This document shows, piece by piece, positions 31,112-41,773 of a stretch of DNA of 64,000 bases (within the stretch, counting starts at the first letter, position 1; each line of letters begins with the position of its first letter). The notes beneath the pieces were generated by a model that was given only the letters and a program-made list of their open reading frames with translations, ran no database searches and had not been told where the DNA came from. Source of the DNA: an uncultured Alphaproteobacteria bacterium (GTDB lineage: Bacteria > Pseudomonadota > Alphaproteobacteria > Rs-D84); contig CAMWON010000001.1 in the NCBI GenBank assembly GCA_947175875.1, positions 81,809 through 145,808 on the forward strand. The letters are read 5' to 3'. A program made the position numbers and the translations under genes.

Positions 31112-31951
31112 TTATGCCGCGAATTTAAGAAGCCGGTCGTCGTTTGCAATAACGGCATATCGATTGCGAATAAATATGCGGCGATATAAAGGCCGGCCGT
31201 TTAGTATCACCCCTGTTTTTGTCGTTGTAAAATCTTTGTCCATCCCCAGTACTTCAAATTTATCGGAATCGTAATCCAGCAAAAATGTAACGGGCACCCC
31301 CATTATTCCTGTATAGTCCGTCGGTATTTCTTTTATCTTGTTAACATTTATCGCATCGGCGTTATCGTATTTTGGATAATGTGCTTCATGCCCGTAATAT
31401 CGGCTGTGCGGCGCGCGGGCATTCTTTTTGCGATTTGTCGCCAGATTTGTGAACCAGCATATGTTGCCAAACTTTTTTAAGCGCCCGTCGGGATGTATAA
31501 ATACTCTGGGATACGTGCAGCCGGTGCGCACCTTGTTGGCGCGTATCAAAGAAAATGTCTGTTCGTATGCGACGGCGTTCATGTTTCCGATAATCAAAAA
31601 ACGTTTGTCATGCGCGGCCAGCAGGTCCATAAATTCCCGAAACAAGGAAAAAGGCGGATTTGTGACGATGACGTCCGCCCGTTTCAGCAATTCAACCGAT
31701 GCCGCACTGCGAAAGTCATCCCCGCCCCGGCCGCCGCTGAACCACACGTCACGGATTTTGCCGGCGGCCTTTAATTCCATAAAGTATTTCACAAACGCAC
31801 TGTCCGCGGTGTCACAGTTGCAATAAATGGTCTTATTAAAAAAATGCGACAGGTAATTGTCGCATTCTTTCCGTACATCCTCGTAACGCGTATAAAATTC
31901 GTCATTTTTGACCGCGCGGGCCCGGTGCAAGTTTGCGCTTTTTGCTGACAT
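31112..31951 (-). CDS. Orphan N6-adenine DNA methyltransferase of the EcoRI-methylase-like family
   Basis: N-terminal KNDEFYTRYEDV motif and catalytic IVTNPPFS (D/N-PP-F) motif. GC is lower than neighbouring genes. No adjacent restriction endonuclease. Confidence 0.65.
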   Translation of the reverse strand: MSAKSANLHRARAVKNDEFYTRYEDVRKECDNYLSHFFNKTIYCNCDTADSAFVKYFMELKAAGKIRDVWFSGGRGGDDFRSAASVELLKRADVIVTNPPFSLFREFMDLLAAHDKRFLIIGNMNAVAYEQTFSLIRANKVRTGCTYPRVFIHPDGRLKKFGNICWFTNLATNRKKNARAPHSRYYGHEAHYPKYDNADAINVNKIKEIPTDYTGIMGVPVTFLLDYDSDKFEVLGMDKDFTTTKTGVILNGRPLYRRIFIRNRYAVIANDDRLLKFAA

Positions 31952-32103: not shown

Positions 32104-33450
32104 TTACGGGCACTGGGCCAGCTGGTTTAACACATTTTGTACGTCTGTGTTAATGGATACCGTTATCTCGCGCTGCAGGCCGTCTATATATGTATAGTCG
32201 AATTTAGACTCGGCAAATTCCGGTGCGGCCGCATATGCGTCGCGGAACGGGGCCAGCATCGCCGTAAACCACTGGCGCCCACGGCACAGACATCCGTTTC
32301 GAACGTCCGCCGCAACGGCTGCGGTGGCGGTGTTGGGGTATTTTGCGTCAAATTCCGCATCCGTCATCATCAGACAGCGGTTGCCCAGACCGTAAAAGTT
32401 CGCGTCATCGGCCAGGAATTTGTAAACCAGGCCGTCGGATGCGCCGGCTTTCTTTAAAGAATACGCCATTCCGTCGGTACAACATGCCTGGGCGCTGCGC
32501 ATCAGCATCTTGTATCTGTCCAGCAGCGGTGCCGCCGTCGGGTCGGTCGCGGTAATGTTTTTGTTGCATTTCGCTTTTGCGATAAACGCATCCAGCAATT
32601 CCGGGCGCAGTTTATTGCTGCGCGGGGCGACTGTTTCGCGAACCATGGGCTTGCGCCGCCATATTTCACATTCCGTTTCAGAATCAAACGGGCATCCGTC
32701 GCCGCCAAAGGCAATCGCGATTACGTTTGTCATATCCTGGGCCACATATTGGGGCTTTGGCGCCGGCATGTTCATGTTGTTCACGACCAGCGTGTCCGTC
32801 CACAGGTTCTCGGCCGGCTTTTGCGGGGCCAATAATTCTTCAACGCGCGCGCGCGTGGTGGCCGCATCGGCCATGTTTTGATTATACAGCTCTATCGCAT
32901 CCACTGATTCGGTTGCCACCGCCGGTGCGGTGCCGTATTGTGCAAAGACCGATTCGGCCGGACTGTCAATCTCGCGCAGGTAAATTTCCGGCGCCGGTTC
33001 CAGATACCAGTCGCTGAAATCCTTTTTCTTGTAATTTACAATCGAATCGTCCCAAATCGGCACGCCGTCGCGCCAATCGACCGTTTTGTCGTATCCGCGG
33101 GCCTTGTAATTGCCGTTTGTCCCGTCATACAGGGCGGGGCGGGTGTCTTCCGGCACCGGCTTTATGCTTAATGTCTTTATATTACGCATCGGCACCGCGC
33201 CTGCATATATATATTGCGGTCGTGGCGCGTATGCCGGCGCCGACGGTACGGTGTTCATAACCGGGGCCGCAGGCTGGACGGCCGTAACAGTCGTCGTTTC
33301 CTCTATCACGCCCAGAACCGTCGGCTCTGCCGCAACCGGTGCAATATCACAACCGGCGCCGACACATTCCGAGCCGTGCGCCATCGCCACCGGACACATC
33401 AGCGCCAGGGACGTCAAAATAACAAGTCTTCCTTTCATAATACGAATCAT
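32104..33450 (-). CDS. Secreted hypothetical protein (~445 aa, 14 Cys)
   Basis: Signal peptide M(IRIM)KGRLVILTSLALMCPVAMA. The ORF-track start at 33585 has no SD and runs through a repeat-rich leader, so the downstream start is preferred. Confidence 0.5.
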   Translation of the reverse strand: MIRIMKGRLVILTSLALMCPVAMAHGSECVGAGCDIAPVAAEPTVLGVIEETTTVTAVQPAAPVMNTVPSAPAYAPRPQYIYAGAVPMRNIKTLSIKPVPEDTRPALYDGTNGNYKARGYDKTVDWRDGVPIWDDSIVNYKKKDFSDWYLEPAPEIYLREIDSPAESVFAQYGTAPAVATESVDAIELYNQNMADAATTRARVEELLAPQKPAENLWTDTLVVNNMNMPAPKPQYVAQDMTNVIAIAFGGDGCPFDSETECEIWRRKPMVRETVAPRSNKLRPELLDAFIAKAKCNKNITATDPTAAPLLDRYKMLMRSAQACCTDGMAYSLKKAGASDGLVYKFLADDANFYGLGNRCLMMTDAEFDAKYPNTATAAVAADVRNGCLCRGRQWFTAMLAPFRDAYAAAPEFAESKFDYTYIDGLQREITVSINTDVQNVLNQLAQCP

Positions 33451-33709
33451 ATCACAAAAAAGGGCCTTTTTAAAACATAAAAATGCCAAAAAGACGAATC
33501 GAATGACCGAATCAGGTATATTTGGGGTTCTTATATGCCTCCTCTGAATCGGTTTTTTCGCCGAATCCGAATCAATTTTTGCCAAAAAAAGCCCCCGGCC
33601 AAAAAAAAATTAAAAAAAATCATCAGGTAAAAAATCCCGGATTTCCGGCGATTTTTCCTAAAAAATGGGCCGGCCCAAAATTTTTTTGAAATTATTTTTG
33701 AAATTGCGC

Positions 33710-33738: not shown

Positions 33739-34059
33739 GTGCGGGCTCTCAAGTTGAGATGAAACGAAAAAAGAAATCTCAACCTCTAGGAAATTCGGCG
33801 GTTCGCAGGTAATTCTGAAAGAAATCGCAACATTGTGAATAAAAGCAGCTCATCAAAAATTCAAGAAGGGATGTGCAGACAGTTGAATTTGGAAATATCC
33901 AAACTTTGACTAAGTCAAATGTGCATATCCTAGACAGGTAGTAGGTTTACATATTAAACCTCGTTAAAAACTTGTCTTGCGAATAATTATATGTAAAGAC
34001 GAACTGATATTAAATGTCAGTGTTGTTTATGCACAGGACTTAAACCACAAGTTTTTTAG

Positions 34060-35560
<1,501 letters not shown>

Positions 35561-35645
35561 ATAGAGAATACCGTTTCCACGAAAACGGTCAAATCCAAAG
35601 CGACTGTCTGAACATCTCTTTTTGAAAATGGGTAAAATTCTGCTG

Positions 35646-35722
35646 GGTCAGTAGTTCAGTTGGTTAGAATGCCGCTCTGATACAGCGGAGGTCGAAGATT
35701 CGAGTTCTTCCTGACCCACCAC
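35646..35722 (+). tRNA. tRNA-Ile (anticodon GAT) in the 16S-23S spacer
   Basis: GGGTCAG...CTGACCC acceptor stem, anticodon loop CTGATAC, encoded CCA. Confidence 0.9.
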
Positions 35723-36021: not shown

Positions 36022-38775
<2,754 letters not shown>

Positions 38776-38849
38776 TCGTTTGACTTATGTCAGACGATTG
38801 CTTGAAGAGAACGTTGACATTGATTCTTGAATCATGTATTATGATGTTC

Positions 38850-38975
38850 GCTGGATTTATTCTGGTGATTATTGAGCGGGAGCCACCCTCTGTTCCATTC
38901 CGAACCAGACAGGGAAACCCCGTATCGCCGATGGTACTTTGGCTTAAGCCACGGAAGAGTAGGTCGTCGCCAGAG
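38850..38975 (+). rRNA. rrf: 5S ribosomal RNA (approximate ends)
   Basis: Conserved CCGAAC...GCCGATGGTAC...GAGAGTAGGTCGTCGCCAG core. Confidence 0.8.
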
Positions 38976-39007
38976 TAAATCCAGTTTCCGATATTAAAAA
39001 CCGATTC

Positions 39008-39033
39008 CACCGCCCATTGGGCGGTTTTTTTTA
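39008..39033 (+). terminator. rRNA operon terminator (CCGCCCattGGGCGG + T8)
   Basis: Read directly. Confidence 0.7.
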
Positions 39034-39078
39034 TTGCTTTTTTTATATCAGAGGATTAAGCTAAAACAAGTTTATTGG

Positions 39079-40158
39079 GAGATATTTATGACGAAAGTAA
39101 TAGCAATGTTTAATCAAAAGGGTGGTGTGGCGAAAACCACGAATACGTTTCAGTTGGGTTGGAAGTTGGCCCGGTTAGGTAAACGTGTTTTATTGGTTGA
39201 TGCTGATCCGCAATGTAATTTAACTGGTCTTGCCTTGGGCATCGGTGATTATGATACCCTGTTCGGATTTTACGACAGTAAAAGAAATAATGATATATTT
39301 TCTGCTTTAGCTCCTGTCTTTAACATGAGTGATATAGAAGGGAATGATATCAGGTCTTATGAAACAACACAGATAATCAAAAATGATAATTTACGTTTGT
39401 TGGCGGGACATGTAAAATTAGCTGAATTTGATATGCAAGTCGCAACGGCGATAACAAGTAGCGCGGGTTTGCCGGTTTTACGTGCGTTGATTGGGGCTTT
39501 TAATAAATTGATTCGCGGAGCTGCGGAAAGAATGGGGGCAGATATTGTGATAATTGATATGAGCCCCAGCATTTCTGCTACAAATATGTGCTTGTTTATG
39601 GGGGCGGATTATTTCATTGTTCCAACTTCTCCTGACTTTTATTGTTATCAAGCAATAGATTCTTTGAGTGAAGTTTTTCCGAAGTGGTCGAAAACGATGT
39701 CAGAATTTAAAAATAATGGAGCGTTACCAAGAGCAAATCCGAAAATGCTTGGTGTGATTTCTTCAAATTATCGTGTTTATACTACCGATAAAAACGCGGA
39801 ACAAAAAACAATGGCGGCAGCATATAAAAAGTGGGACGAAAAGATACGCAATATAATTTTAGCTAAATTGGTTCCGGTGCTTGCTAAAGAGTCAATGATA
39901 ATAGATGAAGCTATTTTCCGTAAGGCCGTGAATTATGATACACCTTATAATTTAGCAAATATACAGGATGTCAATACATTGATAGCAAAATCGCAAGAGT
40001 TATCTAAGCCGGTTTATGAAATTGTTGAAAAAGAATACGGAACCGGAGCGCAGTGGTCGCATATGCAAAAAGGTAAAGAGGTTGGTGCAAAAATAGTTGT
40101 GGAGGAGGTTGACAAGGTATACACAAATATGGCTCAGGCTATTTTAGCTATGATATAA
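39079..40158 (+). CDS. ParA/MinD-family P-loop ATPase (360 aa, extended) in an AT-rich island
   Basis: Deviant Walker A MFNQKGGVAKTT, LLVDADPQ and IIDMSPS motifs. About 38% GC versus about 55% in flanks. Confidence 0.75.
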   Translation, partial: EIFMTKVIAMFNQKGGVAKTTNTFQLGWKLARLGKRVLLVDADPQCNLTGLALGIGDYDTLFGFYDSKRNNDIFSALAPVFNMSDIEGNDIRSYETTQIIKNDNLRLLAGHVKLAEFDMQVATAITSSAGLPVLRALIGAFNKLIRGAAERMGADIVIIDMSPSISATNMCLFMGADYFIVPTSPDFYCYQAIDSLSEVFPKWSKTMSEFKNNGALPRANPKMLGVISSNYRVYTTDKNAEQKTMAAAYKKWDEKIRNIILAKLVPVLAKESMIIDEAIFRKAVNYDTPYNLANIQDVNTLIAKSQELSKPVYEIVEKEYGTGAQWSHMQKGKEVGAKIVVEEVDKVYTNMAQAILAMI

Positions 40159-40349
40159 AGACCTTCGTCCAGTACCAGCCTCAATGGGGCGGGTTTTACA
40201 GTTAAATATTCGCTTAAGAAATGCCCGGGCGTATATCATTGCCGCGTAAATAATACGGTGGATTATGACAAGGCCGTAAAGCGCTTTAACCGCTGCCGTG
40301 GCATATTAAAGCGTCGCGAGACCATAAGCCGAACGCGGGGGAAATAATC

Positions 40350-40589
40350 GTGCCGGATATAATCACAAATATAGATATGCTGCATACCACCCCCATGGGA
40401 ATGATGCGGATACGTCGTAATCTTGGCATAGGTGTCCACAACGTGGTTGAATATTGCCGTGCGCGCATACTGTCGCCGGAATCCGCAATAGAACGCCGTG
40501 GTAAAAATTGGTATATATTGTTGCCTGATTGCGCGATTACGGTTAATGCGTCGTCTTACACAATCATTACGGCGCACAAAGTCCGCTGA
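40350..40589 (+). CDS. DUF3781-like small protein
   Basis: IDMLHTTPMGMMRIRRNLGI...RRGKNWYILLPDCAITVNASSYTIITAHKV matches the DUF3781 signature from memory. GTG start with RBS GGGGGA. Confidence 0.5.
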   Translation: MPDIITNIDMLHTTPMGMMRIRRNLGIGVHNVVEYCRARILSPESAIERRGKNWYILLPDCAITVNASSYTIITAHKVR

Positions 40590-40669
40590 CCAATTATTTT
40601 ATTGCAATCTATGTAATCTGTAATACACTTTGGGGCCAGAGAGGGAATGCAACAAAAGGGTAAGTTGTT

Positions 40670-41080
40670 ATGAAAAAGATATTCCTTGTCTCTGTTCTTT
40701 CCATTTTTTGTGCGGGCGTCGCGTTGGCGTCGGATATGCTGCCGGCGGGCGGTTATTATGAAACCGAAAGCGCCGATTGCGACATGAACGCAATGCGGGC
40801 CGAATTGGACCGTGCCACGGCTGCGCGTCGTGCGGTAATCACGGTTGTGCGCTGCACGCCGCGTGCGGCGGACCGGGATATGGCGCTGGACGCGTCCTAT
40901 GACGCGGAATATGCGACGTTTGATGATGGTTGCATGGATTGCGCCGCCCCGATAGAGCGCGTGATAGACCGCCGCGTATATGTTGAAGAAACGGTTCTGC
41001 AGTATCGTCCGGTTCTGCGCTATGTCCCGGCTGGAACATATTCGCGCACACGCCGTGTATGCAACGAATGCGATATGTAA
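40670..41080 (+). CDS. Secreted hypothetical protein (136 aa, 6 Cys incl. C-terminal CNECDM)
   Basis: Signal peptide MKKIFLVSVLSIFCAGVALA. RBS-like AAGGGTAAG. Confidence 0.5.
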   Translation: MKKIFLVSVLSIFCAGVALASDMLPAGGYYETESADCDMNAMRAELDRATAARRAVITVVRCTPRAADRDMALDASYDAEYATFDDGCMDCAAPIERVIDRRVYVEETVLQYRPVLRYVPAGTYSRTRRVCNECDM

Positions 41081-41191: not shown

Positions 41192-41773
41192 ATGCATTTT
41201 TTTATTCCCCCTATTATGCCTAAGGAAAACGGTCCTTTTTTTGCGGCGCTATTTACTGCGGGCGGTGTAAATGGTGAAGATTTATCTTGTGCCGATTGCT
41301 ACAAGTGTGTTCAGTATGCCGGGTCGAGTTGTGTAAGATGTGTGTATGATTCGAACTATTGTGAAGTTTTGGAGTTCCCAGATGAGGAATGTCAGGGGGG
41401 GGCACAGTGGGACAGCATACAGCGCAAATGCGTCTGCCCTGATACTATTGCGGCGGTTTGTTTCAACCCGTGGGAGTTTTTTGATTCTTCCGACAGTGTA
41501 TGCGGCTGCGCCGGTGTGGCGTGTATATCCGGCAAATATCCTGTGGCGGCCAATACTTGCGCCGATTGTCCGTCGCCGGATTTCACATTGTCGTCCTGCA
41601 GTGTTCAAAGCAGCGTTGGTTATGCAACGGATACGGAAATGCTTATTGGCGGATATAACGGCTGTTATATCCCCGGTGGCTGTGCGGGCAAAGACGATAC
41701 CGGTACGTTCGAACTGATTGCGGATTGTAAGTACAGTACGGCACTGGAAGCCGTAGAGGACGTGGATTACTAA
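41192..41773 (+). CDS. Cys-rich hypothetical protein (193 aa, 20 Cys)
   Basis: CADCYKCVQYAGSSCVRCVYDSNYCEV...CVCPD...CGCAGVACISG...CADCPSPD pattern. The N-terminal signal is weak. Confidence 0.45.
   Translation: MHFFIPPIMPKENGPFFAALFTAGGVNGEDLSCADCYKCVQYAGSSCVRCVYDSNYCEVLEFPDEECQGGAQWDSIQRKCVCPDTIAAVCFNPWEFFDSSDSVCGCAGVACISGKYPVAANTCADCPSPDFTLSSCSVQSSVGYATDTEMLIGGYNGCYIPGGCAGKDDTGTFELIADCKYSTALEAVEDVDY

Follow-up and report, generated by a model that had tools for sequence, protein, structure and literature searches.

A partnerless ParA-like ATPase gene behind the rRNA operon of an uncultured alphaproteobacterium: a candidate exclusion factor from a phage-carried family

Introduction

Dyads of a ParA/Soj-like ATPase and a HEPN protein (MAE_18760 / RiboL-PSP) have been predicted to be toxin-antitoxin systems (Anantharaman et al. 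2013, PMC3710099). The RemAIN system of Salmonella prophage Gifsy-1 is made of the ParA-like ATPase RemA, the immunity protein RemI, and the HEPN anticodon nuclease RemN, and its anti-phage role is presented as proven (Sargen & Helaine 2024, as described in PMC13043305 and PMC9879122). The present study concerns a gene for a partnerless ParA-like ATPase of 356 amino acids (aa), located at 39088..40158 (+ strand) directly behind the rRNA (rrn) operon in a stretch of 64,000 nucleotides (nt) from an uncultured Alphaproteobacteria bacterium (GenBank assembly GCA_947175875.1, contig CAMWON010000001.1, positions 81,809 to 145,808 of the forward strand). The whole stretch is called the window below.

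The window gene resembles RemAIN, so far as that system is described in these accounts, in that a ParA-like ATPase occurs without ParB, and the prophage immunity region that holds RemAIN is the type of slot in which relatives of the window gene are found. The two differ in size and in company: the RemA gene has 840 bp (about 279 aa) and its product acts together with two other proteins, whereas the window protein has 356 aa and stands alone; this is a comparison by description and not by sequence. In lambdoid phages, the repressor-operon slot contains rexAB, sieB, and BstA, which are active in the lysogen and keep other phages out. Relatives of the window gene likewise lie directly downstream of cI/c2 and upstream of N/gene 24, although they have no sequence relationship to these genes and the window copy no longer lies in a prophage. 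An orphan ParA named ParI, from a genomic island of Pseudomonas putida KT2440, reportedly interferes with IncP-7 partition, to go by the title of a 2012 report by Miyakoshi and colleagues. Both ParI and the window protein are orphan ParA-family ATPases on horizontally acquired DNA, and by that title ParI acts against another replicon. ParI sits on a genomic island, whereas relatives of the window gene occur as a phage moron; here too, the comparison is one of description.

The window gene is interpreted here as a single-gene, horizontally acquired, partnerless ParA-like ATPase that acts alone as an exclusion or defence factor against phages or plasmids, a reading to which we give about an even chance. 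A stand-alone role of this kind is suggested because relatives occupy slots expressed in the lysogen, because the sister clades are linked to toxins, and because RemAIN provides a precedent. A gene annotated "ParA family protein" or "AAA family ATPase" is generally taken for a partition gene, and the very widespread branch described here is a distinct one among the genes so annotated.

The ATPase gene and its protein

The gene starts with the ATG at 39088, behind a GGGAG site and 53 nt past the T-run of the 5S terminator; the open reading frame (ORF) listing had placed the start at TTG 39034. The NCBI annotation, on contig JAIDUQ010000001.1 of the metagenome-assembled Alphaproteobacteria genome GCA_029060095.1, gives an identical 356-aa product. 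In Pfam, the protein matched AAA_31 (E 2.7e-30; 106 bits, cut-off 27) and CbiA (E 1.6e-15; 57.6 bits, cut-off 25.4). It also matched phrog_164 of PHROG over residues 2-354 at E 1.5e-44; the name of this family, ParA-like partition protein of phages, is an annotation and not a tested function. The AlphaFold2 model (predicted local distance difference test, pLDDT, 87; predicted template modeling score, pTM, 0.89) has a Soj/3PG5-like ParA/MinD fold. Foldseek matched the model to Soj, ParA, McdA, and MinD with E values from 1e-12 to 1e-8, and a BFVD fold search was uninformative. The protein is a member of the ParA/MinD (SIMIBI) P-loop ATPase superfamily.

In common with the ATPases of ParABS systems (Soj; plasmid ParA, ParF, and SopA), the window protein has the SIMIBI fold of ParA/MinD, the signature lysine, and aspartates in Walker A' and Walker B. 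Residues K11, K16, T17/T18, D38, D40, and the Walker B D157 are all present and are invariant or nearly so across the clade. Unlike the ParABS ATPases, the window gene has no ParB or parS, its product lacks the Walker A glycine before the lysine and is about 100 aa longer, and its scores fall far under the cut-offs. The Walker A motif of the window protein is KGGVAKTT, in which the P-loop glycine preceding the lysine is replaced by alanine; most relatives have serine at this position. The resulting KGGVSKTT takes the place of KGGVGKTT in 64 of 67 members of the partnerless clade and in 63 of the 69 ATPases with a HEPN partner. The motif KGGV(S/A)KTT is the hallmark of the family, and DADPQCN, also present in the window protein, is conserved in the family as well.

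Judged by score, the protein is neither a chromosomal Soj/ParA nor a partition-type ParA. It reached 64.1 bits against a cut-off of 180 for the NCBIfam model ParA_partition, 56.7 against 348 for RepA, and 31.8 against 725 for SopA, and it also scored far under the cut-offs of the MinD and BcsQ models. The best solved relative by sequence is not Soj. It is PDB 3PG5 (E 8e-19, residues 3-207), which is DIP2308 of Corynebacterium diphtheriae, a structural-genomics target of unknown function. This closest solved sequence is similar in length (361 aa), and the identity in the structural alignment is about 20%. A first-pass annotation of the window had noted that the protein is about 100 aa longer than chromosomal ParA, and the lengths agree with this (356 aa versus 243-264 aa in the solved Soj chains). 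No separate domain accounting for the extra residues was evident in the AlphaFold model. The same annotation had regarded a conserved position together with clustering with Soj as evidence against its view of a mobile origin. The position is conserved, as described below, and the protein does not cluster with Soj.

The composition of the gene sets it apart. The gene has 38.1% GC and a GC content at third codon positions (GC3) of 0.34, while the other 38 window ORFs of at least 150 aa have a mean GC of 54.3% (standard deviation 3.0) and a GC3 of 0.63. With z values of -5.4 for GC and -5.8 for GC3 against these 38 ORFs, it is the compositional outlier of the window. The first-pass annotation had described an AT-rich island with two genes at 39034-40600. 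This stretch has 40.3% GC overall, and its part from 40159 to 40600, which includes the DUF3781 gene, has 47.5%. The AT-rich block is essentially the ATPase gene alone, so the claim holds for one gene and not for the second. The gene is also AT-richer than its flanks in all 37 close-clade loci (at least 50% identity), by 12.5 points on average, and 91-100% of the more distant relatives are likewise AT-richer. Because it is found at every close-clade locus, the AT-richness is a family trait and not a sign of recent arrival at the rrn site.

Partner genes and sister clades

Neighboring genes were clustered across 264 loci, the window and 263 others retrieved through relatives of the ATPase. In 74 of them, the +1 gene on the same strand encodes a HEPN_RiboL-PSP protein, about 200 aa long and bearing a motif of the RRNKIAHEAD type. 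The ATPase is 30-43% identical to the window protein over nearly its full length in all of these 74. No HEPN neighbor was found at the 43 loci with at least 50% identity or at the 6 loci with 44-50%. In a neighbor-joining tree, which carries no support values, the window protein belongs to a 67-sequence clade in which HEPN neighbors are lacking altogether. The sister clade contains 109 sequences, of which 69 have HEPN_RiboL-PSP at +1. The ATPase of the predicted ParA-HEPN dyads is apparently of the same family as the window protein, with KGGVSKTT and DADPQCN in common and a sister position in the tree. The difference is that the HEPN gene is missing from the whole clade of the window gene and from the window itself, where a search with hidden Markov models of the partners found no homologue of HEPN or of the second partner (cluster 2) described below.

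More distant relatives are followed at +1 by genes for a PIN domain protein, a RelA/SpoT-like protein, or a phosphoribosyltransferase. A second +1 partner of distant ATPases, about 225 aa long and with no Pfam match, was found at six loci (L070:9082-9753, L074:9068-9736, L079:1489-2199, L082:9041-9760, L084:2771-3448, and L091:9065-9745). Its motifs FIDILGFS and FSDSI, inspected by eye, recall a nucleotidyl-cyclase-like metal site, which is a candidate assignment. In four proteins of about 640-670 aa (P0328, P0341, P0357, and P0373) the ATPase is fused to C-terminal cysteine protease domains of the Ulp1/RickCE type, and in P0362 (731 aa) it is fused to an N-terminal module of Schlafen AlbA_2 and HATPase_c_4. 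The branch looks like an ATPase core shared by variable conflict systems, and one large clade within it lost, or never had, an effector. The window ATPase is a partnerless variant of these conflict-system ParA-like ATPases, and its clade is common and, as far as literature searches show, uncharacterized.

A separate observation was made in the Pf1 prophage AY324828. An unannotated ORF of 175 aa behind Orf317, which is annotated as "Soj-like regulatory protein", is a HEPN_RiboL-PSP protein (L015:6025-6552, + strand, E 2.4e-9). With this ORF, the Pf1 filamentous prophage carries a ParA-HEPN pair near its attachment (att) site.

The proximity to the HEPN-linked clade raises the question of an orphan regulator or antitoxin. 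In the paired systems, the ATPase is predicted to restrain a HEPN, PIN, or similar toxin. A copy that stands alone would neutralize toxins of ParA-toxin dyads encoded elsewhere in the genome or on invaders, and would serve in immunity or against addiction. The antitoxin role was predicted for the ParA/Soj-like ATPase of HEPN dyads (Anantharaman et al. 2013, PMC3710099). The clade without partners is the sister of the one linked to HEPN, with which it has KGGVSKTT in common, and partnerless copies stay more than 50% identical across phyla, which a conserved target would fit. However, neither HEPN nor another partner lies in the window, cross-neutralization is doubtful at 30-43% identity between partnerless and partnered ATPases, and the immunity protein named for RemAIN in the accounts cited above is RemI and not the ATPase. 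We regard an orphan antitoxin as rather improbable.

In the clade of the window gene, only the upstream CI and Cro regulators of phages recur as neighbors, and downstream there is no conserved partner of 60 aa or more. A conserved small ORF of 25-120 aa that could be ParB- or ParG-like was not found beside the gene anywhere in the clade. The gene's own neighbors are the 5S rRNA and DUF3781 genes, with no parB, and scans of 38700-40990 found no centromere-like or tandem repeats, only short AT-rich repeats at chance level. In this respect, the first-pass annotation, which had seen neither a parB partner nor centromere-like repeats beside the gene, was right.

The same annotation had proposed a remnant of an integrated plasmid or a two-gene module with DUF3781. 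The idea of a decaying partition remnant (parA without parB), or of a ParA and DUF3781 module, is now largely refuted and carries very little probability. A ParA-superfamily protein of foreign composition and the existence of weak plasmid relatives (best matches 36-42% identity) would suit it. Against it, the ORF is intact and under purifying selection, ParB, a centromere repeat, and a conserved small DNA-binding ORF are all missing, and the partition-family scores are well under the cut-offs. The pairing with DUF3781 recurs at none of the 263 other loci, the GC contents of the two genes differ, and the relatives of the DUF3781 protein include gut Firmicutes proteins. Most full-length relatives of the ATPase belong to prophages or chromosomes, where they fill moron or immunity slots. 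The ATPase gene gives no evidence of an integrated plasmid, and no function can be assigned to DUF3781 by association with it.

Distribution and genomic sites of the relatives

Full-length homologues with more than 50% identity were found in Alpha-, Beta-, and Gammaproteobacteria and in Chryseobacterium. When a single genome of each species was scanned, at least 589 confirmed relatives emerged, distributed over many bacterial phyla and including candidate-phyla and archaeal genomes. In a search of 1.84 billion cluster representatives, 112 clusters matched at E <=1e-30 and 1226 at E <=1e-10.

Many relatives are located on phages and prophages. At three prophage loci (L007, L010, and L011), the homologue (63% identity) lies between tail genes and the integrase. 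A homologue with 61% identity lies inside a phage genome beside a HigB-like toxin gene and terminase genes (L012). In a Morganella prophage, the homologue (53% identity) stands between the tail fibers and a PARIS-like AAA_15/DUF4435 pair with an integrase. The Salmonella phages ST160 and SE1 carry it as orf23, in the gene order c2, DUF3024, ParA-like, gene 24. In a Helicobacter prophage, about 1.4 kb with three small genes separates the homologue from the integrase gene, and the Pf1 prophage has its relative near the att site. A co-oriented CI-type repressor gene lies just upstream of the ATPase gene and divergent from the Cro and CII genes at 31 loci, which include the close-clade loci L105-L109. 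These sites, behind the CI repressor (as in P22-like phages) and between tail fibers and integrase, are classic slots of accessory genes expressed in the lysogen. The suggestion in the first-pass annotation of a link to mobile DNA is thereby upheld: relatives of the ATPase are carried by mobile elements, and the gene is foreign in composition.

Of 5426 complete E. coli genomes, 109 encode a "ParA family protein" of 358 aa. In IHE3034, the E. coli genome inspected, the ATPase gene is directly behind an XRE-family repressor gene, and the prophage integrase gene intD adjoins a tRNA-Arg gene. As a side observation, a tblastn match in Haemophilus influenzae 51P10H1 (L062:8001-9006) has 11 stop codons in a single frame, and this copy may be frameshifted or a pseudogene.

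The location behind CI bears on a ParI-like incompatibility factor, which is a specific version of exclusion. The ATPase would then disturb the ParABS system of incoming low-copy plasmids or phage-plasmids. ParI, known here by title, is a precedent for an orphan ParA with such an effect, and the window protein retains the fold of ParA and the signature lysine of the dimer. The placement in the CI operon of integrated prophages, however, favors phage-phage over plasmid conflict, the scores against plasmid ParA models are far under the cut-offs, and the likeness to ParI is one of description alone and not of sequence. This version appears unlikely.

Chromosomal copies outside prophages were found as well. 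In the loci L100-L104, from a common environmental species (53% identity), the gene is a lone insert between a BcrAD_BadFG-family gene and an amidohydrolase gene. In a Rickettsiales metagenome-assembled genome (L002), a homologue with 73% identity is directly behind rpoB-rpoC. These copies are among core genes, with no mobile genes nearby. Another homologue with 74% identity (L271) is also at a site other than 5S. The first-pass annotation had pointed to rRNA and tRNA genes as common landing pads; as a general rule this fails for the family, since just one other of the 27 close-clade loci (at least 50% identity) has a tRNA gene immediately upstream, namely Pantoea, with its homologue about 570 nt downstream of tRNA-Ser.

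Retention of the gene behind the rRNA operon

The junction of 5S and ParA is common to three related gut lineages, in which the ParA proteins are 100%, 84%, and 67% identical. The junction was seen in L004, L005, L193, and L270. L004, a Hadza-gut contig, shares 96.9% identity with the window in 16S and 97.3% in 23S, and its ATPase gene comes right after 5S. At the protein level, L004 and the window are 67% identical in the ATPase, 75% in Sua5, and 45% in VIT1. In L270, whose ATPase is 84% identical, the sequence opens with the 3' part of this 5S gene, followed by the terminator.

The nonsynonymous divergence (dN) is 0.13-0.26, and synonymous sites are saturated even against the 84%-identical relative. 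With synonymous divergence (dS) saturated, dN is given alone and not as a dN/dS ratio. These values indicate an old divergence under purifying selection. The gene is foreign and horizontally acquired, was fixed long ago downstream of the rrn terminator, and has been retained there. The shared junction and the saturation speak against a recent landing.

Conservation at one chromosomal site also speaks to a domesticated host ATPase that positions cargo, like McdA, MipZ, or PpfA. Retention in three lineages under purifying selection, the copies in L100-L104 and L002 among core genes and away from mobile genes, and the resemblance of the model to McdA and Soj structures all agree with a positioning ATPase. 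On the other hand, no conserved cargo or adaptor gene is nearby, the family moves on phages with a patchy spread (such as the 109 of 5426 E. coli genomes), and the gene is AT-rich relative to every host examined. We consider a host positioning role quite unlikely, a slim prospect.

The stretch from the rrn operon to Sua5 acts as a slot of variable cargo. In L004, the ATPase gene is followed (L004:7105-10942) by genes for an IceA-family endonuclease and a D12-class adenine methylase, a helix-turn-helix gene, and two unknown genes, with 35-44% GC. DUF3781 is not behind the L004-type ATPase, and the cargo there, which includes a restriction-modification system, differs from that of the window. 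Among ten flanking ORFs scanned in the window, there is no integrase or insertion sequence (IS), as the first-pass annotation had stated. Direct repeats or att sites flanking the island, which it had suggested looking for, were not found beyond short AT-rich repeats at chance level. One of these, a 12-mer at 39026 and 40594, was considered as the ends of an element and rejected, as such repeats occur in a chance-level number. Of the usual marks of an integrated element, the locus has atypical composition and variable content, and no integrase, transposase, or IS was found among the flanking ORFs scanned, nor flanking repeats above chance level.

Proposed mode of action

None of the catalytic residues of the ATPase is lost (the signature Lys11, Lys16, Asp38/Asp40, and Asp157). 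By analogy with ParA proteins, it would form an ATP-dependent dimer. It would act alone against incoming phages or plasmids. It may bind DNA or a foreign protein and so disturb replication, partition, or positioning, and it would not segregate host DNA.

A more specific form of the exclusion and defence reading is put forward only tentatively. The partnerless KGGVSKTT ATPase would be a previously unrecognized single-gene immunity factor, expressed from prophage repressor operons and domesticated in some bacteria, here beside an rrn operon, that works with no nuclease effector, for example by ATP-dependent trapping or mis-positioning of foreign DNA or of a partition or replication protein. If the partnerless clade does serve defence or exclusion, it would be a mechanistically new, nuclease-free type.

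Several points weigh against a stand-alone exclusion or defence role. The function proposed for the ATPase comes from gene context and analogy. A defence protein without a recognizable effector domain is unusual. PADLOC has no model for the ATPase, and its weak matches (PDC-M28B) are confined to residues 4-45 around the P-loop. Alanine or serine in place of the P-loop glycine might modify or reduce the ATPase activity. A housekeeping role would fit long vertical retention as well. The window genome has no prophage, and in the stretch inspected no restriction-modification or other defence gene is directly adjacent. Finally, no sigma-70-like site passed a promoter scan of the interval between the rrn terminator and the ATPase start codon.

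Literature searches on prophage ParA-like exclusion and on ParA-like anti-phage defence found nothing relevant. Those on HEPN with ParA-like proteins returned general papers only, with nothing specific to the partnerless clade.

The rRNA operon, terminator, and leader

The rrn operon upstream of the ATPase gene is complete by Rfam, with 16S rRNA at 34059-35560, tRNA-Ile at 35645-35721, 23S rRNA at 36023-38772, and 5S rRNA at 38861..38975 (+; RF00001, 73.7 bits). The 5S gene is the last of the operon and marks the upstream boundary of the slot. The terminator scan placed the intrinsic terminator of the operon at 39009..39035 (+), with a stem of 7 bp (6 of them G-C), a loop of 3 nt, and a T-run. 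A similar hairpin is also kept in L004, L193, and L270.

A short AT-rich leader at 39036..39087 (+) connects the terminator to the gene and contains the GGGAG ribosome-binding site at 39077-39081. A weak sigma-70-like match, TTGCTT-17-TAAGCT, was seen in it by eye. Relatives of the ATPase have clearer upstream -35/-10 pairs of their own, also judged by eye, and often their own terminator too.

The DUF3781 gene and downstream ORFs

The ATPase gene is followed by an intergenic spacer at 40159..40349 with 49% GC and no recognizable terminator, repeat, or conserved small ORF. The DUF3781 gene is at 40350..40589 (+) and encodes 79 aa from a GTG (NCBI: 70 aa from 40377). Its product matches PF12636 over profile positions 1-72 of 72 at E 2.6e-29 (101 bits against a cut-off of 27) and contains the family motifs HTT, RNL, GKNWY, and TVN..S.TIIT. 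With the AAA_31 match, this bears out the order given by the first-pass annotation, an intact ParA-like gene and then a genuine DUF3781 gene after the 5S terminator. Relatives of the DUF3781 protein at 55-69% identity include Ruminococcus and Butyrivibrio proteins, both from gut Firmicutes. An assignment of DUF3781 as a mini-HEPN was tried and rejected: RNLGIGVH has the R-x6-H form of the HEPN motif (Rx4-6H), but members of the DUF3781 family do not conserve its His.

Two Cys-rich ORFs without a family match follow on the + strand. The first, at 40670..41080, encodes 136 aa with an N-terminus that looks signal-peptide-like by eye. The second, at 41192..41773, encodes 193 aa from 41192 (NCBI: 134 aa from 41369). 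DUF3781 and the two Cys-rich ORFs were found next to the ATPase at 0 of the 263 other loci, and they are unrelated variable cargo of the same slot.

Minor observations

A tandem repeat with an 18-nt unit and about two copies lies at 40992-41027, in the first Cys-rich ORF. In gut Firmicutes-type contigs, the DUF3781 gene shares 11 nt with the 3' end of a CYTH-domain gene. This overlap recurs at all four loci inspected (L265-L268:3445-4246) and hints at a functional link between CYTH and DUF3781.

In the 16S-23S spacer, tRNA-Ile(GAT) at 35645-35721 stands alone, and tRNA-Ala was not detected there. The 23S-5S spacer holds a near-consensus sigma-70 promoter-like site, TTGACA-17-TATTAT, at 38814-38842 (+), which agrees at 11 of 12 positions and is the top match of the scanned region.

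Upstream of the rrn operon, an EcoRI-type adenine methyltransferase gene with 47% GC is located at 31112-31951 (- strand; Pfam E 4e-71 in three stretches). It adjoins an ORF of 493 aa at 32104-33585 (- strand) with no family match. The two may be a restriction-modification pair, or the first may be an orphan methylase.

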